A stretch of 64,000 bases of DNA from positions 1,657,726 through 1,721,725 of the forward strand of contig JADJWT010000001.1 of the NCBI GenBank assembly GCA_016716225.1, in the 5' to 3' direction. The DNA is from Ignavibacteriota bacterium. GTDB taxonomy: Bacteria > Bacteroidota > Ignavibacteria > Ignavibacteriales > Melioribacteraceae. Positions 2,861-59,115 of the stretch are shown one piece after another; positions within the stretch are counted from its first letter, which is position 1, and each line of letters opens with the position of its first letter. The position numbers and the translations under genes were made by a program. The notes beneath the pieces are model-generated. The model made no database searches. It was not told where the DNA came from and was given only the letters and a program-made list of their open reading frames with translations.

Positions 2861-2873
2861 TATATTCAAAAAA

Positions 2874-2905: not shown

Positions 2906-3027
2906 CCCTTAATATTATAATTTAGTAAAGTTGATCAAATGGTCAATATTCTACAATTACAATAAATCATAATATTAAAAAACCCACTTTTTTCTATTTA
3001 ACTTAATTTTTTCTTCATTTTTGCTAA

Positions 3028-3052
3028 TGGCATACCAATTGAAATTATAAAT
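3028..3052 (+). promoter_or_regulatory. candidate -24/-12-type (sigma-54-like geometry) promoter upstream of fliL
   Basis: The sequence TGGCATACCAATTGAAATTATAAAT has GG and G spaced exactly as in the TGGCAC-N5-TTGCW consensus, but -12 reads GA rather than GC. It matches 18/25 positions with a second site at 12356-12380. Confidence 0.3.
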
Positions 3053-3069
3053 AAAAATTGGAGATAAGA

Positions 3070-6195: not shown

Positions 6196-6464
6196 TGTCA
6201 ATAGATTTAGTAATAGAAATTCTAAGCGAAGCTTTTTTTGCGGTTTTATTAATTCTAATTCCAATTTTGGGTTCTGGATTAATAGTCGGAGTTATAATTT
6301 CTATTTTTCAAGCTGCAACTTCTATTCAAGAATCAACACTAACTTTTGTTCCGAAATTAATCATAACTGCAGTAACTATAATAATTGCTTTGCCATTTAT
6401 TACAGATAAAATGGTTTCATTCACTCACAAAATTTTTAGTCTAATTGAAACGGTTGTAAAATGA
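6195..6464 (+). CDS. fliQ: flagellar type III export apparatus protein FliQ
   Basis: MSIDLVIEILSEAFFAVLL...FQAATSIQESTLTFVPKLI matches FliQ. I prefer the ATG at 6195, which forms a TAATG overlap with the fliP stop and gives a typical 89-aa FliQ. The track ORF from 6153 overlaps fliP. Confidence 0.9.
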   Translation: MSIDLVIEILSEAFFAVLLILIPILGSGLIVGVIISIFQAATSIQESTLTFVPKLIITAVTIIIALPFITDKMVSFTHKIFSLIETVVK

Positions 6465-7237: not shown

Positions 7238-7238
7238 G

Positions 7239-8324
7239 ATGGCAGAATTAGACGGACAAGAAAAGACCGAGCAAGCGACTAGTAAACGTCAGCTTGATAC
7301 CAGAGAAAAAGGTCAAGCTCCTAAAAGTCAAGAATTAAATTCACTAGCGGTTTTTACTACTGGATTATTTGTTCTGTTTTTAACTAAAGATTATTTAGGC
7401 GGAAAATTATGGGATATAAGCGTTTATATTTTTTCATCGCTAGATACTCTTGAAATTAGTGCAGATATTCTTAGTATGTACATGATAAAAGGTGCATTGT
7501 TTTTTATTCTTTCTATGTTCCCGGTTTTTATTGGAATTATATTAGTTTCTTTAGCAGTCGGCTATGGTCAAGTGGGATTTAAAATTACACCTAAAGCACT
7601 TGAACCAAAATTCTCCAAACTTGATCCCATTAAAGGATTTAAGAATAGTTTTTTAACAACAAGACCTTTAGTTGAAACAATAAAATCAATTGTAAAACTA
7701 AGTGCAATAGGAATTTTCTCATATATCTTTTTGGAAGATATGATTCTAAATTCTATTGGATTAGTAAATTTCACAATACAAGAAATAGTTAATTACACAA
7801 TAGAAAATTCAATTGATTTTTTATGGAGAGTATCGCTTGTTTATATAGTTATAGCTTTTTCAGATTTTGCTTATCAAAAATTTAAACACAAAAAAGATTT
7901 GATGATGACAAAGCAAGAAGTAAAAGAAGAGCGCAAACAAACAGAAGGCGATCCACAAATTAAATCTCAAATAAGAAGTAAACAAATTGAAATGGCACGA
8001 AAAAGAATGTTGGATGACGTTCCGAAAGCAGATGTTGTAATTACTAACCCAACTCACTTTGCTGTTGCTCTAAAATATGATATTGGAAAAAGTACAGCTC
8101 CAAAAGTAATTGCAAAAGGTCAAGATTTATTAGCACAAAAAATTAAAGAAATAGCTAAACAGCACAATATTCCTTTACATGAAGATGTTCAATTGGCAAG
8201 AGCACTTTACAAGGCATGTGAAATTGGTCAAGAAATTCCGGAAACATTATTTAAAGCTGTCGCTCAAATTTTAGCTTATATATTTAAACTTAAAAATGAG
8301 AAAAAAAGAAAAAGCATAATATAG
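7239..8324 (+). CDS. flhB: flagellar export switch protein FlhB
   Basis: The N-terminus reads DGQEKTEQATSKRQLDTREKGQAPKS. The autocleavage motif NPTH is present in VITNPTHFAVALKY. Confidence 0.92.
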   Translation: MAELDGQEKTEQATSKRQLDTREKGQAPKSQELNSLAVFTTGLFVLFLTKDYLGGKLWDISVYIFSSLDTLEISADILSMYMIKGALFFILSMFPVFIGIILVSLAVGYGQVGFKITPKALEPKFSKLDPIKGFKNSFLTTRPLVETIKSIVKLSAIGIFSYIFLEDMILNSIGLVNFTIQEIVNYTIENSIDFLWRVSLVYIVIAFSDFAYQKFKHKKDLMMTKQEVKEERKQTEGDPQIKSQIRSKQIEMARKRMLDDVPKADVVITNPTHFAVALKYDIGKSTAPKVIAKGQDLLAQKIKEIAKQHNIPLHEDVQLARALYKACEIGQEIPETLFKAVAQILAYIFKLKNEKKRKSII

Positions 8325-43521: not shown

Positions 43522-43690
43522 TTATTTAAAATCTGCAATTTTTCAAAACCAACCAAATCTATAAATTAATTTATTATCAAATAAAAATATGAACTTTTCA
43601 TTTATAGCAACTATTATTTTATACTATCAAATTTGTAAAATGAATTGCGAATTTTTAAGTTTACACAATGTTTACAAATCAAAAAGGAGA

Positions 43691-45820
43691 ATGATGAAAA
43701 TCTATTATTCAAGAATTTTTTCGGCAATTTTAATTTTAATATTTTTTACTCAATTGAATTTGGCACAGCAAAAAGATGAGCCGGTTGCAGAATCTGATAT
43801 TTTTGATACCGGGAAAATGTGGACTTTTGATTATCCGCCAATTCAATATATTAGCGAAACTTATGGTTTTACTCCGACTGACGAATGGTTTGAAGATGTA
43901 AGATTATCTGCATTAAGAATTCCCGGATGCACAGCTTCTTTCGTTTCTGAAGATGGATTAATAATGACAAATAATCACTGCTCAACTTGGCACAGAGATG
44001 CCGTTGAAAAAGAAGGAGAAGATTTAGAAAAAACCGGTTTTTATGCAGAAAATTTAGAAGCTGAAAGAAAAGTTCCAAATATGTATGCTGAACAATTAGC
44101 ATTTATGGTAGATATCACTGATGCAATTAATGAAGCAATTGAAATGGGTTCAACCGATGAAGAAAAAATTAAAAACAAAGAAAATAAATCAAAAGAATTA
44201 GTTGATTATTACAACAAAGAAACCGGATTGGATTGCCAATTAGTTTCGCTGTTTAACGGCGGAAAACATTCAATTTATGGATATAAAAGATTTAATGATA
44301 TTAGATTAGTTTTTATTCCCGAAGAATCTATTGCATCTTTCGGCGGAGATTTGGATAATTTTACTTATCCGCGTTATGATTTGGATTGTACATTTTTCAG
44401 AGTTTATGATGAATCCGGAAAACCAGTAACATCAAATAATTTCTTCAAGTTTAGCAAAAACGGAGTTCAGAAAGATCAAGTAATTTTTTCCGTCGGAAAT
44501 CCGGGTACAACAAACAGATTAAAAACTGTTTCGCAAATTGAATATAACAGAGATATTACTTACAGAAATAGAGCATTTCAGTTTGATACTTATTACAATT
44601 TGTTGGAAGATTTAAAATATCAATATCCCGATAGAGCAGATGAATTCGAAGATGTTAGAAGACGCATTGGAAATGCACAAAAAGTTTTTCATTATACACA
44701 AGTTGGTTTATTGGACCCTTACATAATTGCAAGAAAGCGAGATTTTGAAAATAAAATTAGAACTGAAGTTGAAGCTAATGATGATTTAAGAGCAAAATAT
44801 AGTCACATTTGGGATGCAATAAATAAATTGCGCGAGGAAATGAAACCGGTTGAAAGTCAACTTTCTGCATACAGACAAACAAGATTTATGGGTTCTCAAT
44901 ATTTTGATATTGCAAAAAATATTATTGAATTTGCAGAACAAATGAATTTGCCGGAAACCGAAAGAAATCCAAAATATACAAAAAATCTTGACTCAGTTAA
45001 AAATTCACTTTATCCCGACTCATTTGATTCAATTTTAGAAAATGTAAAATTGGAAGTTCAGCTTGATTACATAAGAATGAATTTAGGCAACGATAATAAT
45101 TTTGTACAAAAACTTTGCGGAAGTTACCAAGGAAGCGAAGCAGTTGAATATTTGCTAAGTAAATCAGCACTTGGAAATAAAGAAAACGCAATGAAATTTC
45201 TTGAAAATTCTGCAAGTGATATTCTCAACTCAAATGATCCATTAATTTATTTTGTAAAAAACACTAAAGATAAAATTGATGAACTTACTAAAAAGTCAAA
45301 AGAAATTATAGATACTGAAAGTATTTTAGAAAATATGTTGGGAAAAGTGTTATATGAAATTTACGGAACCGAAATTCCACCGGATGCAAATTTTACATTA
45401 AGATTAAGTGACGGTGTTTTAGAAAGTTTTGATTATAATGGAACAAAAGCTATTGAAAAAACAACTTTTTATGGAATGTATGATAGATATTTCGGAAGCG
45501 AGAAAACTTATCCTTGGAATTTACCGGCAAGATGGATTGAACCTCCGGCAGATTTTGATTTATCAACAACTTTTAATTTTATTTCCACAAATGATATTGT
45601 TGGCGGAAGTTCAGGAAGCGCTGTAATTAATAAAGATGCTGAAATAGTTGGTCTTGCTTTTGATGGAAACGTTGCTAGCATTATTGGCAATTTTATTTAT
45701 TTACCGGAAGATAATAGAATGGTTTCAGTTGCTTCACAAGCAATTATTGAAGTTTTAGATAAAGTTTATAAAGCCGATAGAATTGTTGAGGAAATAAAAA
45801 CCGGAAAAATTGCTGATTAA
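43691..45820 (+). CDS. S46 family dipeptidyl-peptidase (DPP7/DPP11-like), paralogue 1
   Basis: It has a signal peptide after the ATG at 43691, with an AAGGAGA RBS. Contains GKMWTFDYPP, GCTASFVSEDGLIMTNNHC and the catalytic-Ser context NDIVGGSSGSAVIN. Confidence 0.87.
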   Translation: MMKIYYSRIFSAILILIFFTQLNLAQQKDEPVAESDIFDTGKMWTFDYPPIQYISETYGFTPTDEWFEDVRLSALRIPGCTASFVSEDGLIMTNNHCSTWHRDAVEKEGEDLEKTGFYAENLEAERKVPNMYAEQLAFMVDITDAINEAIEMGSTDEEKIKNKENKSKELVDYYNKETGLDCQLVSLFNGGKHSIYGYKRFNDIRLVFIPEESIASFGGDLDNFTYPRYDLDCTFFRVYDESGKPVTSNNFFKFSKNGVQKDQVIFSVGNPGTTNRLKTVSQIEYNRDITYRNRAFQFDTYYNLLEDLKYQYPDRADEFEDVRRRIGNAQKVFHYTQVGLLDPYIIARKRDFENKIRTEVEANDDLRAKYSHIWDAINKLREEMKPVESQLSAYRQTRFMGSQYFDIAKNIIEFAEQMNLPETERNPKYTKNLDSVKNSLYPDSFDSILENVKLEVQLDYIRMNLGNDNNFVQKLCGSYQGSEAVEYLLSKSALGNKENAMKFLENSASDILNSNDPLIYFVKNTKDKIDELTKKSKEIIDTESILENMLGKVLYEIYGTEIPPDANFTLRLSDGVLESFDYNGTKAIEKTTFYGMYDRYFGSEKTYPWNLPARWIEPPADFDLSTTFNFISTNDIVGGSSGSAVINKDAEIVGLAFDGNVASIIGNFIYLPEDNRMVSVASQAIIEVLDKVYKADRIVEEIKTGKIAD

Positions 45821-45865: not shown

Positions 45866-47263
45866 TTAAAAATATCTTACTAATAAATCAATAATTTTTT
45901 TCTTGAAATTTGTATAAGGCGGATAAATAATTTTTAATAAATTTATTTTACCGCCTTTTATATATGATCTTTCATTTGAAAAGGTTTTAAATCCAGCAAA
46001 ACCGTGAGACCTTCCCATTCCACTGTTTTTTACTCCGCCAAATGGTAAATAATTATGACTGAATTGGACAACCAAATCATTAATTCCAACTCCACCGGAT
46101 TCTGTTTGCGATGTAATTATATCTATAACTTTTTTATTTTTACAAAAAATATAAATCGTTAATGGGAAATTGCGGAATTTAATCCATTCAATTGCTTCAT
46201 CAATTTTTTCAAATTCTATAATTGGTAAAAGCGGACCAAAAATTTCTTCATCTGAAATTTTGCAATTTTTGCAATTTGTTAATATTAAAGTTGGCTCAAT
46301 AAATTTATTTTCCAAATCATGTTTTCCGCCATAAATTATTTCGCTTCCATTTGCTAAAGCATTTTCAATCATTCCGGTCAATTTGTTGTGATGTTTTTCT
46401 GAAATAATTCTTGCATAATCTCCATTTTCTTCAATTTTATTTTCAGAACTTTTATAAAATTTCTTAATTGCTTCAATAAGAAAATTTGAAAATTGTGAAG
46501 AAATATTTTTGTTGACTAAAAGATAATCGGGAGCAATGCAAGTTTGACCTTTATTTAAAAATTTTCCCCAAACAATTTTTTCTGCTGAAGATTTTAAATC
46601 GGCAGTTTCATCAATAATTACAGGCGATTTTCCACCAAGTTCCAAAGTTACACTTGTTAATTTTTCTGCTGCAGATTTTGCAATAATTTTTCCAACTTCG
46701 GTACTTCCGGTAAAAAATATATGATCAAAATTCAGTTCCAATAATTCGGAAGAAATATTTCTGTTTCCTCTAATTACTGCAATTTCATTTTTAGGAAATA
46801 ATTCAGAAATCATCTCTTCAATTAATTTCCCGGTATTTTCAGAAAATTCACTTGGTTTAATAATTACAACATTCCCAGCAGCAATTGCAGAAATCAATGG
46901 ACCAATTGTTAGCAAAAATGGATAATTCCACGGAGAAATTATTAAAACATTTCCTTTGGCTTCATATTTAATAAATACTTTATGAGTTAATAAAGTTAGC
47001 GTCCTTCTTACGCTTTTCGGTTTTATCCAACTTGATAAATTACGTTTCGCATGCTTTAACTCGGAAAGAACGGGATAGATTTCTGTTAAATCAGTTTCTA
47101 TAAAAGATTTTTTAAAATCTTTGTGAAGTGATGTTTTAACCTTATCTCTATTGGCTAAAATCCACTTCTCAATTTTATTTAATTTTCCAATTCTCTCTTT
47201 TGCAGAAGAATTTTTTAGATTTAATTTATTTTCGAATTGAAGTTGAAATATTTCCTTTCCCAT
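45866..47263 (-). CDS. NAD(P)+-dependent aldehyde dehydrogenase (class 3-like)
   Basis: Contains ELGGKSP, the catalytic Cys context GQTCIAPDY, and EIFGPLLPI. Length is 465 aa. Confidence 0.9.
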   Translation of the reverse strand: MGKEIFQLQFENKLNLKNSSAKERIGKLNKIEKWILANRDKVKTSLHKDFKKSFIETDLTEIYPVLSELKHAKRNLSSWIKPKSVRRTLTLLTHKVFIKYEAKGNVLIISPWNYPFLLTIGPLISAIAAGNVVIIKPSEFSENTGKLIEEMISELFPKNEIAVIRGNRNISSELLELNFDHIFFTGSTEVGKIIAKSAAEKLTSVTLELGGKSPVIIDETADLKSSAEKIVWGKFLNKGQTCIAPDYLLVNKNISSQFSNFLIEAIKKFYKSSENKIEENGDYARIISEKHHNKLTGMIENALANGSEIIYGGKHDLENKFIEPTLILTNCKNCKISDEEIFGPLLPIIEFEKIDEAIEWIKFRNFPLTIYIFCKNKKVIDIITSQTESGGVGINDLVVQFSHNYLPFGGVKNSGMGRSHGFAGFKTFSNERSYIKGGKINLLKIIYPPYTNFKKKIIDLLVRYF

Positions 47264-47391
47264 TTATCGCTAAAAGTTATTGGATAAAATTCGTAATTAA
47301 CACAAGTAAAATAAAACTTATTTCTACAAATTGATTGAATTAATATTTGTAAATTTTGAGCATAAAAATATTTCCAAAAAATGGGGAAGTG

Positions 47392-49515
47392 ATGATTCAA
47401 AGAAAATTAAACATCGGCCTTTTTGCAATACTATTTATTTCAAAAATCATTTTTGCACAATCAAATTTTTATGAACCAATTGATATAAATAATGTGAAAT
47501 GGTCGATAAATGATTTTGGTAAAATGTGGACATTTGATAAAGTTCCAGTAGATAAGTTTGAAGCGAAGTATGGATTTAAGCCTTCAGACGAATGGTTGAG
47601 CGATGTGCAAAAATCTGCGTTGCAATTTGATGGCGGATGTTCTGCAGCTTTTGTTTCTCAAGATGGATTGATTATGACAAATCACCATTGTGGAAGAGAT
47701 GAATTAAACACAGTACAAAAAGAAGGCGAGAATTTATTAAAAGATGGATTTTATGCTGATGAATTGGAAGAGGAAAGAAAAATAGAAGGACTTTTTGTCG
47801 ATCAATTAATTCTTATTGAAGATGTAACAAATGAAATTAAAGATTTTATGAATTCCGGCAAAACTGATCAAGAAAAAATAATTCTGCGTGATAAAATGAA
47901 AGATTCACTTACTAATAAGTTTAACAGTGAAACTGGATTGAATTGCAGAATTGTTACACTTTACAACGGCGGAAAATATTCACTTTATGGATATAAAAGA
48001 TATAATGATATTCGCTTGGTGATGGCACCGGATTTTCAAATTGCTGCAACCGGCTGGGATTGGGATAATTTTACTTATCCAAGATATGAATTGGATTTTA
48101 TGTTTTACAGAGCATATGAAAATGGAAAGCCGATTAAAACCGAAAATTATTTTAAGTGGAGTAAAAATGGCGCTGAGGAAAACGAACTAATTTTTGTTGT
48201 TGGTCGCCCTGGAAAAACGGATAGACTACTTTCATTTGCTGAATTGGAATTCCTTCGCGATTTTACTTACAAGCAAAGTTTAATAGGATTTAATGAAATT
48301 TATAATGTTTACTTTGACTTGTATTCTAAATATCCAGAACGAGATGATTTGTTAAATCGTGTTATGGGTTATGGGAATGCTCGTAAATCCTATGCCGGAA
48401 GAATAAGCGGATTGAAGAATGAATTTATTATGAAGAAAAAACTAGATTTTGAAAAAGAGTTAATTGAAAAAGTAAAAACTGATTCAATATTAAATGAAAA
48501 ATATGGGAATATTTGGAATTCGTTAAAAATTGTTTTAGATGAATTAAAAAATTATTCAGCAAAAAATACCGCAATTAGATTTAATAGAATTATACGACCG
48601 GTTTATTTTACAATTGCAGAAAATTTAGTTGAACTTGCCAGTCAAAAAAAATTAAAAAACGATAAAAGATTAGAAAAATTTAAAGATGAAAATTTAGCTG
48701 AAACAATAAATAAGATCTATCCTGATTCTATAAATATTGAGCTTGAGACCAACTTTTTAATTGCACATAAAAGTTTTATTGAAAAAATAATTGGTAAGGA
48801 AAGTGAATATTATAAAATACTTTATAAAAATTTAGAAATAAAGGAGTTAATAAAATCATCTCAAATATCAAATAAAGAAGAGTTTAATAATTATACAAAA
48901 TTATCAAGTGAAGAAATTTTAAGTATTTCTGATCCATTTATAAAATATGTAATTGAATTAAAAAAATTGGAAGAAGATATATTTCCTAAAATCAAAGAAT
49001 TGAATAATACACGACAAGTCTTAAATCAATCATTGGGAGAAGTTATATCTATTATTTTTGGTGATAAAATTCCTCCGGATGCAACTTCTACTTTGCGAAT
49101 TTCAGACGGCGTATTAAAAGGTTATGAATATAACGGAACGATTGCTCCGGGAAAAACAACATACTACGGTTTGTGGGATCGATATGAATCATTTAATAAA
49201 AAAACATATCCTTGGGGATTGCATGAAAGATGGAAAAATATTCCCGAAGATTTGGATCTTTCTACCTCAATTGGATTTGCATCAACAAATGATATTGTTG
49301 GTGGAAATTCCGGAAGCTCTTTAATAAATAAAAATCAAGAAGTTGTTGGCTTAGCACATGATGGAAATATTGAAAGTCTTGCCGGAGACGTAATATTTTT
49401 GGAAGAAAATAACAGAACAGTTGCAACAGATTCCAAAGGATTGATTGAAGCTTTAAAATACGTTTACAGAACAGATAATCTGGTTGAAGAATTGATAAAT
49501 GGAAAGTTGGAATAA
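47392..49515 (+). CDS. S46 family dipeptidyl-peptidase (DPP7/DPP11-like), paralogue 2
   Basis: It is collinear with 43691-45820: GKMWTFDKVP, GCSAAFVSQDGLIMTNHHC and NDIVGGNSGSSLIN. A signal peptide follows the ATG at 47392. Confidence 0.87.
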   Translation: MIQRKLNIGLFAILFISKIIFAQSNFYEPIDINNVKWSINDFGKMWTFDKVPVDKFEAKYGFKPSDEWLSDVQKSALQFDGGCSAAFVSQDGLIMTNHHCGRDELNTVQKEGENLLKDGFYADELEEERKIEGLFVDQLILIEDVTNEIKDFMNSGKTDQEKIILRDKMKDSLTNKFNSETGLNCRIVTLYNGGKYSLYGYKRYNDIRLVMAPDFQIAATGWDWDNFTYPRYELDFMFYRAYENGKPIKTENYFKWSKNGAEENELIFVVGRPGKTDRLLSFAELEFLRDFTYKQSLIGFNEIYNVYFDLYSKYPERDDLLNRVMGYGNARKSYAGRISGLKNEFIMKKKLDFEKELIEKVKTDSILNEKYGNIWNSLKIVLDELKNYSAKNTAIRFNRIIRPVYFTIAENLVELASQKKLKNDKRLEKFKDENLAETINKIYPDSINIELETNFLIAHKSFIEKIIGKESEYYKILYKNLEIKELIKSSQISNKEEFNNYTKLSSEEILSISDPFIKYVIELKKLEEDIFPKIKELNNTRQVLNQSLGEVISIIFGDKIPPDATSTLRISDGVLKGYEYNGTIAPGKTTYYGLWDRYESFNKKTYPWGLHERWKNIPEDLDLSTSIGFASTNDIVGGNSGSSLINKNQEVVGLAHDGNIESLAGDVIFLEENNRTVATDSKGLIEALKYVYRTDNLVEELINGKLE

Positions 49516-49790
49516 TTTGGCTTGAAGATAATAACTAATTTTTGACTTAAAATATTTATTCAAATTATACTATATATCTCTTTATAATATTTATAACAAA
49601 ATATTAAAATACTTGATTTTTAAAATTTCGTAATCTATTTTATACACATAAAGCAATAAGCCTAAACCTTGTGAGAAACATTATGAATTTTAAATTCTAA
49701 GTTTTCTCCATTTTACATTTCCAGCGCTTCCCCAAGGATTCTACTTACAGTTTATTTGATTTTATTTTAATCAATCATAGGCTAGAGTAA

Positions 49791-52169
49791 ATGATTGGGC
49801 GATTAATAAATCATTATAGAATTATTGAAAAACTCGGCAGTGGCGGAATGGGTGTTGTTTATAAAGCCTTCGACGAAAAGCTTAACCGTTTTGTTGCACT
49901 TAAATTTTTGCCTTCCAATTGTTATATTGACGATGTTTATAGATTTAGTATTATTAGTGAAGCTAGAACTTCAGCTACTTTAGAACATCCAAATATTTGC
50001 AATATTCATGAAGTTGTTGAGACAGATGATAATCAAGTTTTTATAGTAATGGCATATTATGAAGGAGAAACTCTTAAACAAAAAATTGAAAATAAATCAT
50101 TAGAGCATGATCAAATTGTAAATATAATTTTTCAAATATTAAATGGTTTACAAGCATCTCATGAAAAAGGAATTATTCATAGAGATATAAAACCAGCAAA
50201 TATTTTTATTACAAACAAAAATGAAGTTAAAATTTTAGATTTTGGATTAGCTAAAAATTTCGAAGATATTAATTTAACTTCGACCGAATCAACTTCCGGA
50301 ACTTTTGCTTACATGTCACCTGAGCAAATCAAAGGTGAAAATTTAGATCATAGAACAGACATTTGGTCATTTGGTGTTTTACTATATGAACTAATAAGTA
50401 ATAAAAAGCCATTTAATGATAAATATGAACAATCAACATTATTTTCAATTTTAAATGATGAGCCTAATCTAACCGAAATAAACAAAAATAAAAAAGATAA
50501 GTTACTTGAAGAAATAATTATAAAATGCTTAGACAAAAATAAGGAATTAAGATTTCAGTCTGTTGACGAAATAATAAAATTGCTGAAAATTAAATATTCC
50601 GTAGCTACTAAAAGTAAGATATTTAAATTTTCAAAATTACTTATTGCGACTGCATTTTTGTTAATAATTTCAATCATTTATTTTTTCGCAAGTATTAAAA
50701 AAAATTATTTTAATGGCGAAAAAAATTATAAACAAATAGCAATTTTATTTAAAAATTCAGAATCCAGTAAAAATTTTTCCGAAACATCTCTACTGCTTCA
50801 ATCATTACTATCACAAAATTTAATTAACTATGAAAATATTAAAATTATTGATCCAATAAGTATGAATGGATTAATAGAAAATCTGAAAATAGTTGGTGAT
50901 ATAAGATCAGCAGTAAATATGAACAGAATATTGGGAGAAATGTCAATAGATTATTATTTGGTAGGAACAATAATCTCCCAAACGAAAAAAAATTTACAAA
51001 CATATTTAATTAAAACAGATACAAAAGAAATAATTTTTTCAAAAAATAATTATTTTGAAACGGAAAGCGAATTACCAGAAATAGCAAACAAAATTTCCAA
51101 TGTTATTTTGGATTATTTCCAAATTCAAAAAATTGATTTGAGGCATGACAAAGATTTACAGCCTTTCATTCAAGGTACAAATAATCTTTCCGCATTAAAA
51201 TCATTTCTAATTGCAAGTGAATTTAATTACAAGCTTGATAAGGTAAATGAAGAAAAATATTTAAAAAGTGCCATTAGTTTAGACTCAACTTTTATTTCCC
51301 CAAGAATATGGTTAATTCCAACACTTATTTATAGAGGAGAAATTAAAGAAGCCATTGAACAGTTTAGAATGGTTAAAAACTTAGAACAAAAAGCTAATAG
51401 AAATGAACAGATTATGATAAAATGGGCTGAAGCCTATGTTAATAAAGATATAGAAAATCAAATTAAATATTTAAAACTTGCTTTAGAGTATATGCCAAGG
51501 AATAATATAATTATGTACAATCTTGCTTATTTATATTGTACTCTTACAAATTATAATGAATCAATTTATTTCTTAGAACAAATAATGGAAATGAAATGGA
51601 ATTTTCCCGAAGTGTATACGTTGTTAGGATTCTGTTATACAAAATTAAAAATGTATTCTCAAGCAATTAAAACTTTGGAAAATTCTTTTAATATAAAACC
51701 AGTAAATAATGATATTTATTTACTTCTTAAAATAGCATACAATAAACAAAAAAATCTGAACCGATCGAATTACTATGATTCGCTTTATTTTGAAAATATT
51801 AAAAAAGAAGGTGTTCCATTAATATATTCAATTGAAAATTCCGCAAATTATGATCTAGAGTTTGGCGAGACAAATAATGCAATTAATTCGTTTAAAACAA
51901 TTTTAGATATTGAACCTAATAATTTAGAAATACGAGAAAGAATTGCTGATTTATATCTTGAAAAATTGGATACTAATTTATCTATAATCGAATATTTCAA
52001 AATTCTTCAACTAAATAAGGGAAAATTATCCGTATATCTAAAATTGGGTAAAATTTTTGATAAAAGAAAAGATACACTTAAAGCTCTACAGTATTATAAA
52101 GAATATATAAAAGTTGACTCAACAAAAAATAAGGATTCAATAAGTAATAGAATCCGTCAATTAAAATAA
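49791..52169 (+). CDS. Hanks-type Ser/Thr protein kinase with a TM helix and C-terminal TPR-repeat region
   Basis: The kinase motifs are GSGGMGVVYKA, VALKFL, HRDIKPANIF, DFGLAK and YMSPEQ. The TM helix is LLIATAFLLIISIIYFFA, followed by TPR-like repeats. Confidence 0.88.
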   Translation: MIGRLINHYRIIEKLGSGGMGVVYKAFDEKLNRFVALKFLPSNCYIDDVYRFSIISEARTSATLEHPNICNIHEVVETDDNQVFIVMAYYEGETLKQKIENKSLEHDQIVNIIFQILNGLQASHEKGIIHRDIKPANIFITNKNEVKILDFGLAKNFEDINLTSTESTSGTFAYMSPEQIKGENLDHRTDIWSFGVLLYELISNKKPFNDKYEQSTLFSILNDEPNLTEINKNKKDKLLEEIIIKCLDKNKELRFQSVDEIIKLLKIKYSVATKSKIFKFSKLLIATAFLLIISIIYFFASIKKNYFNGEKNYKQIAILFKNSESSKNFSETSLLLQSLLSQNLINYENIKIIDPISMNGLIENLKIVGDIRSAVNMNRILGEMSIDYYLVGTIISQTKKNLQTYLIKTDTKEIIFSKNNYFETESELPEIANKISNVILDYFQIQKIDLRHDKDLQPFIQGTNNLSALKSFLIASEFNYKLDKVNEEKYLKSAISLDSTFISPRIWLIPTLIYRGEIKEAIEQFRMVKNLEQKANRNEQIMIKWAEAYVNKDIENQIKYLKLALEYMPRNNIIMYNLAYLYCTLTNYNESIYFLEQIMEMKWNFPEVYTLLGFCYTKLKMYSQAIKTLENSFNIKPVNNDIYLLLKIAYNKQKNLNRSNYYDSLYFENIKKEGVPLIYSIENSANYDLEFGETNNAINSFKTILDIEPNNLEIRERIADLYLEKLDTNLSIIEYFKILQLNKGKLSVYLKLGKIFDKRKDTLKALQYYKEYIKVDSTKNKDSISNRIRQLK

Positions 52170-52187
52170 TGTTTAAGGAGGAAACCC

Positions 52188-52490
52188 ATGATCGATCTAG
52201 AAAAAATTAAAGCAATCTATAATCAAGCTTTAACTGATGAAATATTTTTTAATGATTTTCTTCAAAATCCGGAAAATTTCAAATCAAATTTTAACTTAAC
52301 AGATTCTGAGATTGTAGAAATTAATACTATTCTAAACAAAACTGTTTCAAATAAAGAAATGATTGGTAAATTTTATGCAACTTTTAAAAATTATTCAACA
52401 ACTTTGGGAGCAATATCAATAAAACCACCAATACCATGGTGGCCAACTTTTCCTATTCCTCCTATTGAGGATACCGATTCACCAAGATAA
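52188..52490 (+). CDS. candidate RiPP precursor peptide (NHLP/Nif11-like leader, Pro/Trp-rich C-terminal core)
   Basis: A strong AAGGAGG RBS lies at 52175-52181. The leader-like segment is IYNQALTDEIFFNDFLQNPENFKSNFNLTDSEIVEIN, and a Gly-Ala pair sits at residues 74-75. The tail is ISIKPPIPWWPTFPIPPIEDTDSPR. Confidence 0.5.
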   Translation: MIDLEKIKAIYNQALTDEIFFNDFLQNPENFKSNFNLTDSEIVEINTILNKTVSNKEMIGKFYATFKNYSTTLGAISIKPPIPWWPTFPIPPIEDTDSPR

Positions 52491-52519
52491 TTATATGTTT
52501 TACAAAAAGAATTCTGAAA

Positions 52520-53467
52520 ATGTATTTAATGGACTTTAAAAGTCGCTTTGATGAATTAGTTAAATTTTGGCCGGAATTAATAAAGGCTGATTTAAATAAT
52601 TATATGAAAGAAAAAAATTATCTTCATGACAATAATTATGAAAAATGTAATTATGGTTATCCTCTTTGGAGTGAAATTTTAATTTCACTGGATGAACATT
52701 TATCAAATAATTCAAAAATTAGTTCACATCAAAATATTTTCTTGCAAGATATTATATGGGCTCAGTTTTGTTTAATACTAGCTTTTAGAATAAAGGATGA
52801 TTTGTATGACGGTGAAATAAAAAGTAACACACTTTTAGCTTCCTCAGATTTACTCCAAATAGAATCAATAAAAACTTATAAAAAGTATTTTAAAAGTTCA
52901 GATTCGTTTTGGACCTCATTCCATGATTCAATTAGTTTAACAATACTTGCGGCAATTAAAGTAGATGAAATGCAGCAAAATATTAGAACTGATCCTGATG
53001 AATTATTAAACACCTATTATAATGTTATATCATTATTCAATATTGGAATATCAGCAGTCTGCAAAAAATACCGAAAAGAAAATATCTTAAAAGACATTTT
53101 AAATTTTTCAACTAACTTAACTCTAGCAGCACAAATTTTAGATGATTTAGAAGATATTGAAGAAGATTTTTCAAGAAAAAGATTCAACTATGTTATCTTG
53201 AAATTATTAAATACTTCTCCACAGATTATTATAGATGAAAATTTTGTGGATGAAGAATTGATTTCAAAAATTATATTAAAAGAAGGATTAAATAACATTT
53301 TTGACAATGTTTTTGAACTTATTCAAATAAGTAAAACAATTTTAAATTCTTTAAAATTTGAGATTTTTTTTAGTTTAATTATTAATCATGAAGAATATGT
53401 AAAATTATTTAAAGAGAAATATCATAAAGATAGGATCAACATTATCTTCAATGAATTAAAGATTTAA
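52520..53467 (+). CDS. isoprenoid-synthase-fold protein with two Asp-rich motifs (polyprenyl synthase/ComQ-like)
   Basis: Contains DDLYD (52796-52810) and LAAQILDDLEDIEED (DDLED at 53141-53155), about 115 residues apart. The second context resembles the FQxxDDxxD motif of trans-prenyl synthases. The protein appears all-helical. Confidence 0.5.
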   Translation: MYLMDFKSRFDELVKFWPELIKADLNNYMKEKNYLHDNNYEKCNYGYPLWSEILISLDEHLSNNSKISSHQNIFLQDIIWAQFCLILAFRIKDDLYDGEIKSNTLLASSDLLQIESIKTYKKYFKSSDSFWTSFHDSISLTILAAIKVDEMQQNIRTDPDELLNTYYNVISLFNIGISAVCKKYRKENILKDILNFSTNLTLAAQILDDLEDIEEDFSRKRFNYVILKLLNTSPQIIIDENFVDEELISKIILKEGLNNIFDNVFELIQISKTILNSLKFEIFFSLIINHEEYVKLFKEKYHKDRINIIFNELKI

Positions 53468-53503
53468 ATAGTTTTTAAAATAATATTACTTTAGCAAAAT
53501 AAA

Positions 53504-55000
53504 TTGAAAAAATTAGAATATCTTTTTGAGCTTGCAGAAATACTAAATAACCAAAACAATTTTGATGAAATGCTTCGTATTGTATCATCAAAAACATCAG
53601 CAATATTCAATTCTGATATTACTTCAATTTTAATGATTAATCCAAGTTCACAAGAAACGTATAAAACAGTCTATAAAAAAGAAATTAAAATTAAAAACGA
53701 ACAATATTCTATTCTACAATCAATAATAATCGGATGGGTAATTATTAATAAAAAACCAATTCTTGTTTCAGATATTAAAACTGATGTTCGGTTCAAAGAA
53801 AATTTGTTTAATTCATTTCCAATTAAATCAATAATTTGCTCACCACTAAATAATAATGATACAAAAATTGGGTATATAATTTTAATGAATAAGAATGACA
53901 AGGATTCGTTTGAAGAAAATGATTTAATGTATTTACAAAAAATTGCAATTATTTCTGCCCCGTTTATTAATAATGCTCAAAAAATTCAAGAATTTTTCAA
54001 TCTACCAGTAACACAAAATATTCTTGTAAACAAATATAAAAGTGTAGGATTATTGGGTAAAAGCAATTCATTTATTGAATTATTACAAGGTATTGAAGCT
54101 GCATCAAAATGCGATGTAAGAGTTGTAATTGAAGGAGAAACCGGAACTGGGAAAGAATTAATAGTAAGGGCAATTCATAATTTTAGTAACAGATCCGGAT
54201 TCCCTTTTATTGCGATTGATTGTGGGGCAATATCTAATAATTTAATAGAAAGTGAATTATTTGGTCATGTTAAGGGTGCATTTACTGGTGCAAATCAAGA
54301 TCATACAGGCCTAATAGTTCAAGCAAATAAAGGCACTTTATTTCTTGATGAAATCTGTAATCTTTCTTATGAAATGCAGGCAAAATTATTAAGGGTTTTA
54401 CAAGAAGGTGAAGTTCGTCCGGTGGGAAGTATAAAAGTAATAAAAGTTGATGTAAGATTTATTGCAGCAACAAGCGTTCCTTTACACACTTTGGTAGTAA
54501 ATAAGCAATTTCGTGAGGATTTATTTTTTAGACTCATGGTTTATCCAATAAAGGTCCCTTCATTAAATGAAAGAAAAACAGATATTCCAATTATCGCTAA
54601 TTTCTTTTTACTAAAATTTTCGAAAGAACAAAATAAGAAAGCGGAATTTTTTCACAAAAAAATTCTTGATTATATTAAGAATAAAAATTGGAGCGGAAAT
54701 ATAAGAGAATTAGAAAATTTTGTTGAACATATTGTAACAATCGTTCCTTTTAATATCGAAGTAATTGAAATAGAATACCTTTCTCCAAAAATACAGGAAG
54801 ATATTCGTACATATACTGAATCTACTAATAACAGAAAAATAATTTCATTAACTGTAGAATTAGAAAATTACGAAAAAAAAATAATCAAAAAGTCCCTCGA
54901 AGAAAATGAATGGAATCAATCACAAACAGCTAGATCACTTGATATTCCTGAACAAACACTGCGATACAAAATGCGAAAATTGAATATAGAAAAACTATAG
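53504..55000 (+). CDS. sigma-54-dependent transcriptional activator (GAF-like sensor, AAA+ domain, Fis-type HTH)
   Basis: Walker A is GETGTGKE and the GAFTGA loop is present (KGAFTGA). Also contains ESELFGH, and the C-terminal HTH is NQSQTARSLDIPEQTLRYKMRKLNI. The start is TTG. Confidence 0.9.
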   Translation: MKKLEYLFELAEILNNQNNFDEMLRIVSSKTSAIFNSDITSILMINPSSQETYKTVYKKEIKIKNEQYSILQSIIIGWVIINKKPILVSDIKTDVRFKENLFNSFPIKSIICSPLNNNDTKIGYIILMNKNDKDSFEENDLMYLQKIAIISAPFINNAQKIQEFFNLPVTQNILVNKYKSVGLLGKSNSFIELLQGIEAASKCDVRVVIEGETGTGKELIVRAIHNFSNRSGFPFIAIDCGAISNNLIESELFGHVKGAFTGANQDHTGLIVQANKGTLFLDEICNLSYEMQAKLLRVLQEGEVRPVGSIKVIKVDVRFIAATSVPLHTLVVNKQFREDLFFRLMVYPIKVPSLNERKTDIPIIANFFLLKFSKEQNKKAEFFHKKILDYIKNKNWSGNIRELENFVEHIVTIVPFNIEVIEIEYLSPKIQEDIRTYTESTNNRKIISLTVELENYEKKIIKKSLEENEWNQSQTARSLDIPEQTLRYKMRKLNIEKL

Positions 55001-55016
55001 AAATTTTATTATTTAA

Positions 55017-55044
55017 TGCTCGCATAAAAATGCGAGCAATTTTC
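55017..55044 (+). terminator. rho-independent terminator
   Basis: The stem pairs TGCTCGCA (55017-55024) with TGCGAGCA (55031-55038) around the loop TAAAAA, followed by ATTTT. Confidence 0.6.
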
Positions 55045-55278
55045 CGACAATTATTTTTTAAACATTAAAAGATTCTTCAAATTCACAATTTAACAAATAA
55101 CACACATCTTTATCCTCGCAAACTTCTGCTAAAAAATATATCCACTCCTAAATAACATTAAAATTCTTAAAAGGTAACTCATTTAATTACAATAGATTAT
55201 GGAGATTAACATACCAGATTTATTATGGTACGTTTTTAGACTTTTATTATTTATCAAACAAAAAACTTGGAGATAATA

Positions 55279-55758
55279 ATGAAAACATCAATTAAAAAAA
55301 TTGCATTTCTGGTTGTAACTTTCTTATTGGTAACTAAAATATTTTCATCTGGGCAAGTCAAAACAGACTCACTTGTAAGGTACAAGACTATTGAAAAAAA
55401 TCTATTAGTTGGACTAAAATCAGATAATCAAGGGCTTCAGTTTAGTTGTGCCTATTATTTGGGTGAAATCAAATCAAAGAAAGCAGTTATTCCATTAATG
55501 AAAATTCTACATTCATCAAAAGTTGATGGAATGAGAATAATTGCCGCATTATCACTTTACAAAATAAACTCTGAACAAGGAATGTTTGCAGTAAAACAAG
55601 CTGCTAAATTTGATAATTGTGAAAGAGTTCAACGAATGTGCAGAAATTTTTATTTCAAACATTTATTAGATGAAAAAGGTGTTGTTGAAGTTGAAGAAAT
55701 TCAAATTGCAGAAATGAAAGCCCTTAAAGATTACAAATTAGCAGATTTTGAAAAGTAA
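55279..55758 (+). CDS. secreted HEAT-like repeat protein
   Basis: A signal peptide follows the ATG at 55279, which has a GGAG RBS. The repeats LQFSCAYYLGEIKSKKAVIPLMKIL and MRIIAALSLYKINSEQGMFAV resemble PBS-lyase HEAT-like repeats. Confidence 0.55.
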   Translation: MKTSIKKIAFLVVTFLLVTKIFSSGQVKTDSLVRYKTIEKNLLVGLKSDNQGLQFSCAYYLGEIKSKKAVIPLMKILHSSKVDGMRIIAALSLYKINSEQGMFAVKQAAKFDNCERVQRMCRNFYFKHLLDEKGVVEVEEIQIAEMKALKDYKLADFEK

Positions 55759-56027
55759 ATAGAAAAATAAAACAGCTTCTCTCAGTATTTGGGAGAAGTT
55801 GCAATTAATATATTGATGAAAAAATAAGTGAAAAATTTAATTAAAAGATTTAGCTCAAATTTTAATATGGGTTTAATAAACGATTTCATCAAAGAATGCT
55901 GTAAATGAAATTAAATTATGGTTTTAGTATAACTTCAATAAAGATCAAAACAAAATTTTAAAATATGCAGAAGAAGTATATGAAATAAAATGCAGTAGCA
56001 AAGAAGCATTCTCAGAAAGGTGATAAT

Positions 56028-57242
56028 ATGAAAATATTATATTTTCTACTTTTGATCAACTTTCAAATTTTTATTTCAGTCCATTATTCAAGAAGCAACA
56101 TTAATAATTCTACTATAAATTCTATAAAATTGTATGACTATTTAATTATTGCTGACGATAAATTTTTTTACGACATAAACAGATTTGCAGATTGGAAAAC
56201 AAGAAAGGGAATTACAACTAAAGTTGTAAAACTCAGTTCTATTGGAAAAGAATGGAAAGAAATAAAAAATTTTGTGAAACATGAATACGAAAAAAATAAT
56301 ATTAAATTTATTTTGCTTGTTGGAGATGTTGAAAATATTCCTTTAGTTTATCCACATACAAATTACTCAAGCGATATTAGATATGGAGACTTGGATGGAA
56401 ATGTTTTCAACATAGAAGTACCTGTCGGTAGAATAATTCCAAGCAAAAAAATTTTGTGTTATCAAATATTTGAAGATGTAAACTACGCTATTGATAAATT
56501 AATAAATTATGAAATACAATTACCAGCAGATGATATAATAAACAATGTACTTCTAATTTCTCACCAAAATAAAATTTATAATTCATGTTCAAATTCAATT
56601 TTTAATAAGGAATATATAAATCAGCCTAAATTTATTAAAGTATTTGGCGCAGAATCTGGGTGCAATGAAGATATTAATACTTTCTTAAGTTCTGGTGTAA
56701 ATATAGTTAATTATCGCGGTCATGCTGGCGCAACTGGATGGGATTCATGGAGCAATATCGGAGAAAGCTTTTCTGGATCAGAACTTAACAAAATAAGCTA
56801 TCAACCATGGAATCCAATTGTTTTTTCAATAGCTTGTTTTACTGCAGATCTTGAAATGGAAGATTTAACGATTGCCGAAGAATTTGTTATGAATAAGTAT
56901 GGAGCAGTTGCATTTCTTGGGGCTACGGGTGCTACAGAAAATACTATGAATAATATATTCAATAAAAAGTTGTTTAGCTCAATATGTAACCAAAATATTT
57001 TTTTACTCGGAAATATTATAAAAAATTCAATGAATGATTATTCGTTGGAAAGTTGTTTCGACAGATATAAATATTTACTTATTGGAGATCCAACTTTAGA
57101 AATTTGGACAAACAAATCACAGAAATTTACAAATGTGAAACTTATTGATAATAAAAATAATGTAATTATAAAAACAAGTATTGATAGTTGTAAAGTTTGT
57201 GTTTCAAGCACAATGTCTGGAAGGAATTTTACAAAGTTATAA
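56028..57242 (+). CDS. peptidase C25 (gingipain-like) catalytic-domain fragment with N-terminal signal sequence
   Basis: Contains FILLVGDVENIP, the His context NYRGHAGATGW and the Cys context VFSIACFTADL. The ORF ends abruptly and overlaps the next ORF in another frame. Confidence 0.7.
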   Translation: MKILYFLLLINFQIFISVHYSRSNINNSTINSIKLYDYLIIADDKFFYDINRFADWKTRKGITTKVVKLSSIGKEWKEIKNFVKHEYEKNNIKFILLVGDVENIPLVYPHTNYSSDIRYGDLDGNVFNIEVPVGRIIPSKKILCYQIFEDVNYAIDKLINYEIQLPADDIINNVLLISHQNKIYNSCSNSIFNKEYINQPKFIKVFGAESGCNEDINTFLSSGVNIVNYRGHAGATGWDSWSNIGESFSGSELNKISYQPWNPIVFSIACFTADLEMEDLTIAEEFVMNKYGAVAFLGATGATENTMNNIFNKKLFSSICNQNIFLLGNIIKNSMNDYSLESCFDRYKYLLIGDPTLEIWTNKSQKFTNVKLIDNKNNVIIKTSIDSCKVCVSSTMSGRNFTKL

Positions 57243-57904
57243 CTGGTAATCCTCCATTCGAAATTAATACATCAGTAAGACCATTATATATTACTCTTAC
57301 AAAGCATAATTATGTTCCATTTACTTTAATAACTGGTGGAAAAATCATATCTAATGAAAATTGGATTGGGAATTTAATGATTCAAGGAGATTTGATAATA
57401 TCTAAAAATACTAAAATAAATATAAGTAATGGATCACCAGTTATTGAAGGCTCATTAACTATTGAGGATGGGGTAAAATTAAATTTCGATAAGGATTTAC
57501 AATTAATAGTGAAAGGAAATCTAATTGCTTCCGGAATTAATTCAAATGTAATATCATTTAAAAGTATTAATGAAAAAAATAAATGGGGAGGTATCGTATT
57601 TGATCCTCTTGCAAACGGAATATTAGAAAATTGTGAAATTCAAAACGCAATAACTGGAATAAATTGTAAAAAAACTCTGCCCAAAATATGTAATAATAGT
57701 TTATATAAAAATAATACAGCAATTAATGTTTTTGATATAAACAATTTGGATAATTCAATCAGTTGCAACAATATTTTTGCAAATAAACAAAAAGGAATTT
57801 ATGTAAATAACTCTTTTATAAAAATTGAAAGAAATAACATTTATGAAAATGATGTTGGTATTGATTGTTTTCACTCAAATGTTTTTTATATAAAAATTTA
57901 TTAA
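57197..57904 (+). CDS. right-handed beta-helix repeat fragment (probable continuation of the C25 gene in a shifted frame)
   Basis: It has neither a signal peptide nor an RBS. It begins with PLYITLTKHNYVPF and continues with repeated N-x-I/N-x-G-I-x-C beta-helix-like units. It overlaps both neighbours. Confidence 0.5.
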   Translation: MCFKHNVWKEFYKVITGNPPFEINTSVRPLYITLTKHNYVPFTLITGGKIISNENWIGNLMIQGDLIISKNTKINISNGSPVIEGSLTIEDGVKLNFDKDLQLIVKGNLIASGINSNVISFKSINEKNKWGGIVFDPLANGILENCEIQNAITGINCKKTLPKICNNSLYKNNTAINVFDINNLDNSISCNNIFANKQKGIYVNNSFIKIERNNIYENDVGIDCFHSNVFYIKIY

Positions 57905-59115
57905 AGAAAAATTCAACTTACGGTTTGAAGAGTTCATATTATAGCAGTATTTATATGCTTAGTAGTAATTTTTTATCTAGTTATTCTAAAACGGGTGAAA
58001 ACATTTTCATTAATAATAACTGTGAAATTATGTCTGAATACTATTGTAATTTATACTTCGGAACGATGAAATATGTTGGGCTAAATACGTTTTCAAATGA
58101 GATTAATAATTGTGAAATAAATGCAAATTATAATTGTTTTATAAAAGCAGAATTGAACAATTGGGGAACGAATCCTAAATTTAACATCTTCAATTCCTAT
58201 TTTGATAATCTTCCTATTTGGGATGGTTTTTCAAATAATCAAAATATTACAACCAATGATGAGAATAATTTCAATTTAATATGTAACAAAAACTCAAATC
58301 TTGAAAAAGCACTAAAATATCAACAAGATGGATTTTACAACGATGCTATTTTGTTATATCAGAATTATATTAAAAAAAATATAACCAGCCCACTAGCAGC
58401 AAATGTATTAACTAGAATAAAAGATTGTTTTACACTTTCAGATAAATCTGGATTTGGAGAATTATTAAAAGAAATAACTGAATTGAATTCAGAAGAAAAT
58501 ATTGATCTTGATATAGTTTGTACTGAATTGCAAAATCAGTGCTCACTAATCGAGAAAAATTATAATAAAGTAATTCGAAATATTGAATATCTAATTGAAA
58601 AATATGATTCAAATTTAATAGTGAAAAAATATTCATTATTTAATTTAGCTCTCATCTATTTTGTTTCTTTAGGTGATACTTCTAGAGCAAAAGAAACTCT
58701 TAGACTATTAGAATTAATATTTCCATTAGATGAATTGGTGCTAGATTTAAAATATTTATTTGGCAATACTGAAATTGTAAACCTGAAAAATGACTCTTTT
58801 CTTAACAGTTATAAAGATTCAGCAGTTAATAACCTAAACTATTGTTTATATCAAAACTATCCCAATCCATTTAATCCAAAAACAAGAATAAAATATTCTA
58901 TTCACAATAGATATAATAAATTTTATACAAGTAATGTTAATCTAAAAATATACGATGTAATTGGTCGCGAAATAATCGAGTTGGTAAATGAAAAACAAAA
59001 AGGGGGAATTTATGAAATTGAATTTGATGCAACAAAATTCTCAAGTGGTGTTTACATAATAAAACTATCCATCGATGACTTTATTGATACAAAAAAAGCC
59101 ATATTACTTAAATAA
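57865..59115 (+). CDS. C-terminal fragment with TPR-like region and T9SS C-terminal sorting domain
   Basis: The C-terminus LYQNYPNPFNPKTRIKYSI...VNLKIYDVIGREI...GIYEIEFDATKFSSGVYIIKL is the typical Por/T9SS secretion-tail pattern. There is no signal peptide. Confidence 0.6.
   Translation: MFSLKCFLYKNLLKKNSTYGLKSSYYSSIYMLSSNFLSSYSKTGENIFINNNCEIMSEYYCNLYFGTMKYVGLNTFSNEINNCEINANYNCFIKAELNNWGTNPKFNIFNSYFDNLPIWDGFSNNQNITTNDENNFNLICNKNSNLEKALKYQQDGFYNDAILLYQNYIKKNITSPLAANVLTRIKDCFTLSDKSGFGELLKEITELNSEENIDLDIVCTELQNQCSLIEKNYNKVIRNIEYLIEKYDSNLIVKKYSLFNLALIYFVSLGDTSRAKETLRLLELIFPLDELVLDLKYLFGNTEIVNLKNDSFLNSYKDSAVNNLNYCLYQNYPNPFNPKTRIKYSIHNRYNKFYTSNVNLKIYDVIGREIIELVNEKQKGGIYEIEFDATKFSSGVYIIKLSIDDFIDTKKAILLK

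Follow-up and report, generated by a model that had tools for sequence, protein, structure and literature searches.

The question raised by this locus is what a small ribosomal peptide might become when its gene stands directly in front of a gene for an enzyme with a predicted isoprenoid-synthase fold. The locus lies in a stretch of 64,000 nucleotides (nt) from an Ignavibacteriota bacterium (GenBank assembly GCA_016716225.1, contig JADJWT010000001.1, positions 1,657,726 to 1,721,725 of the forward strand), which is referred to here in its full length as the window and whose own numbering is used below. An initial annotation had proposed that an open reading frame (ORF) of 100 amino acids (aa), with a tail rich in proline (Pro) and tryptophan (Trp), and a neighboring 315-aa ComQ-like enzyme could together make an isoprenylated peptide. 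The analysis described here extends this pair to a three-gene cassette composed of a Hanks-type Ser/Thr kinase, a precursor peptide, and a putative peptide tryptophan prenyltransferase; judged from sequence, profile, and model comparisons, precursor and prenyltransferase probably make a Trp-prenylated peptide.

All three genes lie on the forward strand in the order kinase, precursor, enzyme. The kinase gene (49791-52169, 792 aa; Pfam Pkinase E = 3.5e-57 together with TPR families) is a component that the initial annotation overlooked. It is followed after 18 nt by the precursor gene (52188-52490, 100 aa), which is assigned by a sub-threshold match to NF038399 and by positional homologues in related loci, and the precursor stop is separated by 29 nt from the start of the gene for the PalQ-like, all-alpha enzyme (52520-53467, 315 aa), which resembles trans-isoprenyl diphosphate synthases (hereafter trans-IDS). 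Because these gaps are so short, the three genes are probably cotranscribed. The Shine-Dalgarno sequence AAGGAGG (52175-52181, forward strand), read directly 6 nt 5' of the precursor ATG, is the sole copy of that heptamer in the window when both strands are searched. The positions originally given for the small ORF, this ribosome-binding site, and the enzyme ORF were all correct; in this Ignavibacteriae metagenome-assembled genome (MAG), precursor and enzyme bear the names IPM32_07310 and IPM32_07315 and the annotation "hypothetical protein."

The nature of the 315-aa protein is the first point to be settled. A Pfam scan returned zero matches at E <= 1, PF00348 included, and the single NCBIfam signal was FPPsyn (NF045485), with 15.5 bits against a cut-off of 275 over residues 175-216. 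An AlphaFold2 (AF2) model, all-helical with a predicted local distance difference test score (pLDDT) of 80 and a predicted template modeling score (pTM) of 0.80, was compared with the PDB using Foldseek, and all 50 matches listed were trans-isoprenyl diphosphate synthases (29 of them at E <= 0.001), mostly with TM values of 0.6-0.7, so that the modeled structure argues for the isoprenoid-synthase fold that had been suspected. A word-indexed search with the enzyme yielded three homologues at about 30% identity; an exhaustive profile search across 1.84 billion representatives yielded 583 clusters at E <= 0.001, of which 223 reached E <= 1e-30, and the family is therefore visible through exhaustive profile searching, for which word-indexed searches are insufficient. 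The members sampled are all unnamed or "hypothetical" and metagenome-derived, the family being known so far solely from MAGs and metagenome contigs, and the 150 best of the 583 are single-domain proteins of 193-381 aa. The MAG loci that carry a taxon label belong to Bacteroidota (including Ignavibacteria), Zixibacteria, KSB1, Lentisphaeria, and Acidobacteriota. Because matches of family members to synthase models (SQS_PSY, polyprenyl_synt, and Terpene_synth_C) are all sub-threshold, the best at E = 1.1e-4, the family lies within the isoprenoid-synthase superfamily and in none of its defined families.

These data bear directly on the possibility that the protein is a housekeeping polyprenyl diphosphate synthase of the IspA/IspB type next to a small ORF by chance. 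Canonical IspA/IspB/GGPPS enzymes (PF00348) do share with it the fold, two DDxxD motifs, and a Gln before the second motif; however, the PF00348 and FPPsyn models leave the protein unassigned, the sub-threshold similarity is confined to the second motif, and the family does not preserve, in the alignment, the basic GKT and RRG motifs with which the synthases bind substrate. The neighborhood also differs, consisting of a peptide and a kinase conserved beside the enzyme in several phyla rather than of genes for isoprenoid metabolism. The protein is thus not a member of the synthase families, and the housekeeping explanation, which the initial annotation had itself considered, was rejected as contradicted by the data and deserves almost no credence.

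Conservation within the family is concentrated in the two Asp-rich motifs. Among 111 full-length members, D93, D97, D208, D209, D212, and D216 are invariant, while D94, Q205, W50, P54, Q82, F130, Q152, A179, C181, N223, and A271 are at least 90% conserved. The motifs R[IL]xDDxxD and QIxDDxxDxxED are 114-120 residues apart, with a spacing of 115 in nearly all members listed. In the window the first motif, D93-D94-L-Y-D97 (DDLYD, 52796-52810, forward strand), is found where it was first reported and is predicted to form the site for Mg2+ and diphosphate. The second motif, Q205-I-L-D208-D209-L-E-D212-I-E-E-D216 (53132-53167, forward strand), contains a Gln-Asp dyad predicted to bind indole, in addition to a metal or diphosphate site; the segment originally reported for it, AAQILDDLEDIEED, is present and spans 53126-53167, the start given for it, 53141, being that of DDLED.

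Several studies of characterized enzymes allow these residues to be interpreted. In Paenibacillus alvei, PalP, PalX, and PalQ are a histidine kinase, an NHLP-type precursor, and an enzyme of the isoprenoid-synthase superfamily, respectively (Miyata, Ito, Fujinami 2023, PMC10853753). PalQ prenylates a Trp of PalX at indole C3 to give a pyrroloindole, the NHLP domain of PalX enhances the reaction, and the functional residues comprise D89/D93, D200/D204, and Q197, the last of which touches the indole NH (PMC10853753). The combination of an NHLP precursor with an isoprenoid-fold Trp prenyltransferase, which the initial annotation did not know to be described, is thus already known from PalX/PalQ since 2023 (PMC10853753). 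Ord1 of Streptomyces is a crystallized all-alpha prenyltransferase that farnesylates free indole or Trp, in which Q216A retains 4.2% activity and D219A is inactive, indicating that a Gln/Asp dyad is needed for indole prenylation (PMC12510300), and according to a 2026 review all characterized trans-IDS-like prenyltransferases are Trp-specific (PMC13290415). A literature search for "Franean1_4349" gave no match.

The sequence of PalQ was obtained through a search with PalX followed by reading of its locus; PalQ has 312 aa and, like the window enzyme, no Pfam match. The enzyme family profile aligns with PalQ in hhalign with 97.5% probability and E = 7.9e-12 over 204 columns, and hmmsearch of the profile against PalQ gives 56.5 bits (E = 2.3e-14) over nearly the full length; at the same database size, the best-scoring synthase of solved structure reaches 24.8 bits, over 75 residues. 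In the hhalign mapping, D93 corresponds to PalQ D89, D97 to D93, Q205 to Q197, D208 to D200, D209 to D201, and D212 to D204, so that the functional residues of PalQ all align with invariant or at least 90% conserved residues among the 111 members. By these comparisons, which covered PalQ and the sequences in the PDB, PalQ is the closest characterized relative found here. Fold, motifs, profile homology, and linkage to a precursor would qualify the 315-aa enzyme as part of a trans-IDS-like peptide prenyltransferase system, for which Mg2+-dependent transfer is predicted.

The same evidence serves to weigh a second possibility, namely that the enzyme prenylates free tryptophan or indole, or is a terpene synthase, and that the small ORF encodes a regulatory or scaffold protein. 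Such an activity would accord with Ord1, in which the same Gln/Asp dyad serves the farnesylation of free indole or Trp (PMC12510300), and with the weak SQS_PSY and Terpene_synth_C matches of some family members. Ord1 and the P domain of ChrPC resemble the enzyme in being all-alpha and in its predicted sites, with the first Asp-rich motif as a single Mg2+ site and a Gln/Asp dyad for the indole (PMC12510300, PMC13290415). Nevertheless, the family profile, searched against PDB sequences, gives marginal synthase matches at the second motif only and leaves Ord1 unmatched at E <= 1, whereas it matches the peptide-modifying PalQ. ChrPC is a protein with a fused cyclase domain, in contrast to the single-domain architecture of the 150 best family members. 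The constant presence of a small ORF, which carries an NHLP-clan leader in 10 of 17 cases and an invariant Trp near its C-terminus, also argues against a small-molecule substrate, and this explanation is considered improbable.

Peptide prenylation therefore has to be examined from the side of the precursor. A word-indexed search with the 100-aa protein returned only itself, and the relevant homologues were recognized by position: in all related loci with upstream DNA, which were collected from a four-sequence alignment and are biased towards the QILDDLE subfamily, a small ORF on the same strand directly precedes the enzyme gene. Because this ORF has a leader of the same type and a Trp-bearing tail in each case, the pairing of precursor and enzyme is not due to chance, and the co-conservation that the initial annotation had put up for testing is borne out. 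The precursors share an N-terminal pattern, xLxDVxxxAxxDxxFxxxLxxNPxxALxxxgxxLSxxDxxxL, and 10 of the 17 aligned match NF038399 ("Os1348 family NHLP clan protein"; best E = 3.8e-9), 6 match PF14407 Frankia_peptide, 2 match TIGR03793, and none matches the Nif11 model TIGR03798. The NHLP-type leader originally proposed is supported at the family level, where the profile matches probably place the leader, approximately residues 1-50 in the window precursor, in the NHLP clan.

The core or tail of the window precursor comprises residues 76-100, ISIKPPIPWWPTFPIPPIEDTDSPR, which include the 8 Pro initially counted, and the codons of W84-W85 lie, as first reported, at 52437-52442 (forward strand), W84 being the predicted prenyl acceptor. 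In the alignment of 17 precursors, the sole invariant column is the Trp aligned with W84, in line with the possible Trp modification first suggested. The tails usually present this residue amid prolines, as in PPPPPWNPYR, PPPPPPWQPRFPLEDPSK, LPPPPAWSPDIPIK, KPYPWPPEP, NPPNPWQA, INPWGP, GGWGRWPR, GKGVWA, and SAPPTW. Across 27 non-redundant precursors, Trp accounts for 5.9% of the last 25 residues versus 1.0% in the leaders (approximately sixfold) and Pro for 16% versus 4.4% (approximately 3.6-fold), and a Trp occurs within the last 25 residues in 24 of the 27. The window core further has PWxPxFP[IL] and an "ED" in common with L011, a locus of the Ignavibacteriales, and the tail beyond the Trp is therefore constrained in that lineage as well; dN/dS, the ratio of nonsynonymous to synonymous substitution rates, is 0.26-0.38 in close precursor pairs, on few substitutions.

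Two variants of the precursor were observed. The precursor of the Ignavibacteriae MAG locus L010 is unusually long (142 aa), with the core GPCPWNDCPPGIIEKE. A GC-rich subgroup (L002 46-333, L005 1-189, L024 2117-2458) is characterized by tandem RW(P/I/V)G repeats, for example RWIGRWIAGWPGRWPPPPF, and bears three or four Trp instead of one, so that multiple prenylations per peptide may be possible.

Cleavage of the leader at a double-glycine-type site, for which the G74-A75 pair had been put forward, was also considered and rejected. The pair is present in the window precursor; however, the alignment of 17 precursors contains no conserved GG or GA column, and no gene for a C39/ABC exporter is conserved across the loci. 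Pfam likewise detects no C39 peptidase or ABC transporter domain in six ORFs scanned beside the cassette.

The third member of the cassette is the kinase, and its linkage is as regular as that of the precursor. In the first set of loci it is found in 15 of 15 with enough flanking DNA, directly upstream in 14. Full-length homologues with 27-36% identity, directly upstream on the same strand, occur at L001, L006, L010-L012, L014, and L016-L020, partial copies are located at contig ends in L007 and L008, and L013 and L015 lack upstream DNA. Of 20 additional metagenome loci, all 11 with more than approximately 700 bp upstream contain the kinase. The window protein has a kinase domain (residues 1-270), one transmembrane helix (approximately residues 284-302), and a C-terminal part of approximately 480 residues, consisting of an unassigned region of about 200 residues and TPR repeats. 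A single hydrophobic segment at approximately residues 285-320 was found in 10 of 10 kinases checked, preceded in most by several Lys/Arg, and because of this segment and its K/R-rich N-terminal flank the kinase domain is predicted to be cytoplasmic and the C-terminal domain periplasmic. A single-sequence AF2 model of the ectodomain reached a pLDDT of 53.6, with the first 197 residues below 50, which was too poor for a fold search.

Individual kinase genes depart from this arrangement. The KSB1 MAG locus L009 (25-285, 376-1050, 2525-3112) is the sole locus in which the kinase lies downstream of precursor and enzyme. At L010 the cassette kinase is divided between ORFs 5039-6055 and 6089-7432, pointing to a frameshift, a stop codon, or an error in sequencing. 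In the Bacteroidetes MAG locus L018, a second Ser/Thr kinase paralogue (628-3640, 898 aa), whose kinase domain is 48% identical to the window kinase, is situated approximately 1.3 kb upstream of the cassette kinase.

A kinase in constant company with a ribosomal peptide could in principle be the modifying enzyme, phosphorylating the core as class III/IV lanthipeptide synthetases do and leaving the isoprenoid-fold protein an accessory role. Partial matches to LanL and LanKC (E = 1e-18 and 3e-10) lend this idea some appeal, yet they represent the generic kinase domain only and are far under the cut-offs, Pfam finds no lyase or cyclase domain, and a transmembrane helix with a large non-cytoplasmic domain is typical of sensors. 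The cores, such as PPPPPWNPYR and GGWGRWPR, contain no conserved Ser or Thr; the data thus contradict this explanation, which was rejected and is given only a very slight chance.

The role of the kinase is better approached through known peptide systems. Like the cassette, PalPXQ comprises three genes, in which a sensor kinase joins an NHLP-type precursor and an all-alpha enzyme (about 312 aa) that has no Pfam match. The enzymes are homologous at the profile level over nearly their whole length, the two Asp-rich motifs occupy aligned positions, as does the Gln that precedes the second by three residues, and the core contains a conserved Trp. In contrast, PalP is a histidine kinase, whereas the kinase encoded here is of the Hanks Ser/Thr type, its TPR domain being predicted to be periplasmic; the gene order here is kinase, precursor, enzyme on one strand; and the leader here matches the Os1348/Frankia_peptide branch of the NHLP clan, not the canonical TIGR03793.

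The ComQXP(A) system of Bacillus provides the second comparison. There, too, an isoprenoid-fold enzyme acts on a small ribosomal peptide, prenylating an internal Trp close to its C-terminus (PMC5331326, PMC10853753), a reaction that is predicted in the present case; the genes adjoin that of a membrane sensor kinase; and no dedicated exporter is encoded. However, the second Asp-rich motif is missing in ComQ (PMC10853753), which is contrasted here by description, whereas the present family has an invariant DDxxDxxxD. Because this motif is intact and PF00348 is unmatched, the enzyme is not a member of the ComQ family proper (IPR033965), and in this respect the initial description of it as ComQ-like is not supported. 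ComX has no NHLP-type leader, and ComP is a polytopic histidine kinase that works with the response regulator ComA, whereas the present Ser/Thr kinase is single-pass and lacks a conserved regulator. The cassette may accordingly function like ComQXPA quorum sensing without being a member of it, since the linked kinase is of the Hanks type and a conserved response regulator is lacking.

An alternative use of the same chemistry is a Trp-prenylated peptide that serves as an antimicrobial or membrane-active lipopeptide, or as a membrane-anchored modulator, with the kinase regulating only production or immunity. Antimicrobial peptides gain membrane activity when Trp is enzymatically prenylated (PMC13290415), kinase-fusion regulators are known as neighbors of NHLP-type precursors, the window kinase partially matches TIGR03903 (TOMM kinase/cyclase) and TIGR04510 (peptide-modification-system cyclase), and neither a response regulator nor an exporter is conserved. 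On the other hand, genes for immunity, transport, or further tailoring are not conserved either; the cores are short, Pro-rich, and not amphipathic; and one enzyme, one peptide, and one sensor kinase in strict linkage reproduce the layout of ComQXP and PalPXQ (PMC10853753). This alternative is rather unlikely, albeit the most substantial of those discussed.

On the observed fold, homology, motif conservation, and three-gene linkage, a scheme for Trp prenylation can be drawn up whose chemistry, acceptor residue, donor length, regiochemistry, processing, and export are modeled on PalQ and ComQ. The 100-aa ribosomal precursor would dock through its N-terminal NHLP-clan leader on the cytoplasmic 315-aa enzyme. 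This soluble enzyme would bind an allylic prenyl diphosphate, by analogy one of C5 to C15, via Mg2+ at D93/D97, and the Q205/D208 dyad would hold the indole ring of the invariant Trp (W84, possibly W85) in place and activate it. The prenyl group would then be moved to the Trp, probably to indole C3 with closure of a pyrroloindole ring. The lipidated proline-rich peptide would be trimmed and released by a protease that is assumed because no cleavage motif is conserved. In the most speculative step, the periplasmic TPR domain of the kinase might sense the released peptide, as in a ComQXP- or PalPXQ-like circuit.

A number of observations weigh against this scheme. A BLASTP search of the window enzyme against PalQ gave no alignment; the two are approximately 17% identical and homologous at the profile level only, and because pairwise comparison finds nothing, the family is best regarded as a separate, remote sister family of PalQ, with membership at the superfamily or sister-family level. 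Canonical synthases, too, have a Gln at position -3 of the second motif (FQIxDD), and this residue therefore does not discriminate a prenyltransferase from a synthase. Moreover, the D200A/D204A double mutant of PalQ stayed active (PMC10853753), so that the strict conservation of the motif here is unexplained by the PalQ data. PalQ also strictly requires a C-terminal Trp (PMC10853753), whereas most Trp residues of the present precursors are internal, 2-17 residues from the end and usually in a Pro-rich context. At the leader, the window precursor scores 18.7 bits against NF038399 (cut-off 40, E = 0.0013) and is thus sub-threshold, and hhalign of the precursor against the PalX family reaches 78.5% probability (E = 1.7e-5) over just 34 columns, covering the N-terminal helices. 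Finally, no exporter, protease, response regulator, or any further gene is conserved across the loci, and the proposal that the kinase is the receptor of the lipidated peptide, made because ComQXP and PalPXQ show a comparable linkage of three genes and a comparable kinase topology, draws on linkage, topology, and analogy and remains somewhat doubtful. A widespread ComQXP-like pheromone circuit in uncultured Gram-negative lineages, in which a single-pass Hanks-type kinase would recognize the prenylated Pro-rich peptide as its ligand through the periplasmic TPR domain, is a still more tentative suggestion; the lineages that might possess it, named equally tentatively, are Ignavibacteria and other Bacteroidota, Zixibacteria, KSB1, Lentisphaeria, and Acidobacteriota.

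To our knowledge, the prenylation of peptide Trp by enzymes with an isoprenoid-synthase fold is restricted to a handful of systems (ComQ, PalQ, and ChrPC), and the two with a linked sensor kinase that we know of, ComQ and PalQ, are both from Firmicutes; few ligands are known to us for bacterial Hanks-type receptor kinases. Against this background, the new elements are a large enzyme family that occurs in uncultured and mostly Gram-negative phyla and is assigned neither by Pfam nor by curated NCBIfam models, a Trp that lies internally among prolines, and a universal partner that is a Ser/Thr receptor kinase instead of a histidine kinase. If an internal, proline-flanked Trp is indeed the acceptor, the toolbox for enzymatic peptide lipidation would be widened, since PalQ is restricted to a terminal Trp. 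The linkage of the kinase provides a testable candidate for peptide signaling in phyla without a characterized system and a testable candidate ligand for a bacterial Hanks-type receptor kinase, and if the circuit were true, it would represent lipopeptide quorum sensing outside Firmicutes, with a eukaryote-like receptor kinase replacing the histidine kinase.

The surroundings of the cassette were also surveyed. Rfam gave zero matches over 49000-56000, no sigma-54 promoter was found near the operon, the match count being at chance level, and a scan for sigma-70 promoters and terminators was uninformative in DNA of 29% guanine plus cytosine (GC). The GC content of the window is 28.9%, and that of the cassette (taken at 50000-54000) is 21-26%, a difference that could hint at horizontal acquisition. 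A reading of the locus as a defense system was rejected, as PADLOC gave only generic kinase-domain matches (PD-T4-6, mad6) and none for precursor or enzyme.

Downstream, 36 nt 3' of the prenyltransferase gene, begins a gene for a GAF/AAA+/HTH sigma-54-dependent activator (53504-55000, forward strand; Pfam Sigma54_activat E = 2e-64, GAF, HTH_8). Related GAF proteins are linked in 4 of 17 loci at varied positions (including L010 3707-5011, L014 2-616, and L018 10806-11375), and the activator may be associated with the cassette, though not as a conserved part. At two Bacteroidota loci, L001 (4552-6822) and L006 (4278-6434), the cassette is followed by an anti-sigma-factor-type kinase (HATPase_c_2), a STAS anti-anti-sigma protein, and an extracytoplasmic function (ECF)-type sigma-70 factor, a module that is not conserved at other loci.

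Upstream of the kinase gene, two paralogous secreted proteins of 720-740 aa are encoded at 43589-45820 and 47356-49515 on the forward strand, with an aldehyde-dehydrogenase-like gene between them on the opposite strand (45866-47263). By eye, the paralogues share G(C)(S/T)A(S/A)FVS.DGLIMTN(N/H)HC and look like S46-type dipeptidyl peptidases; they are not conserved beside the cassette in other loci. Further downstream, a C25 (gingipain-family) peptidase gene (56028-57242, forward strand; Pfam E = 1.8e-48) is followed by two overlapping forward-strand ORFs (57197-57904 and 57865-59115), which may represent a single gene interrupted by a frameshift or by an error of assembly, and a homologue of the second of these ORFs also occurs near the cassette in L014 and L018.

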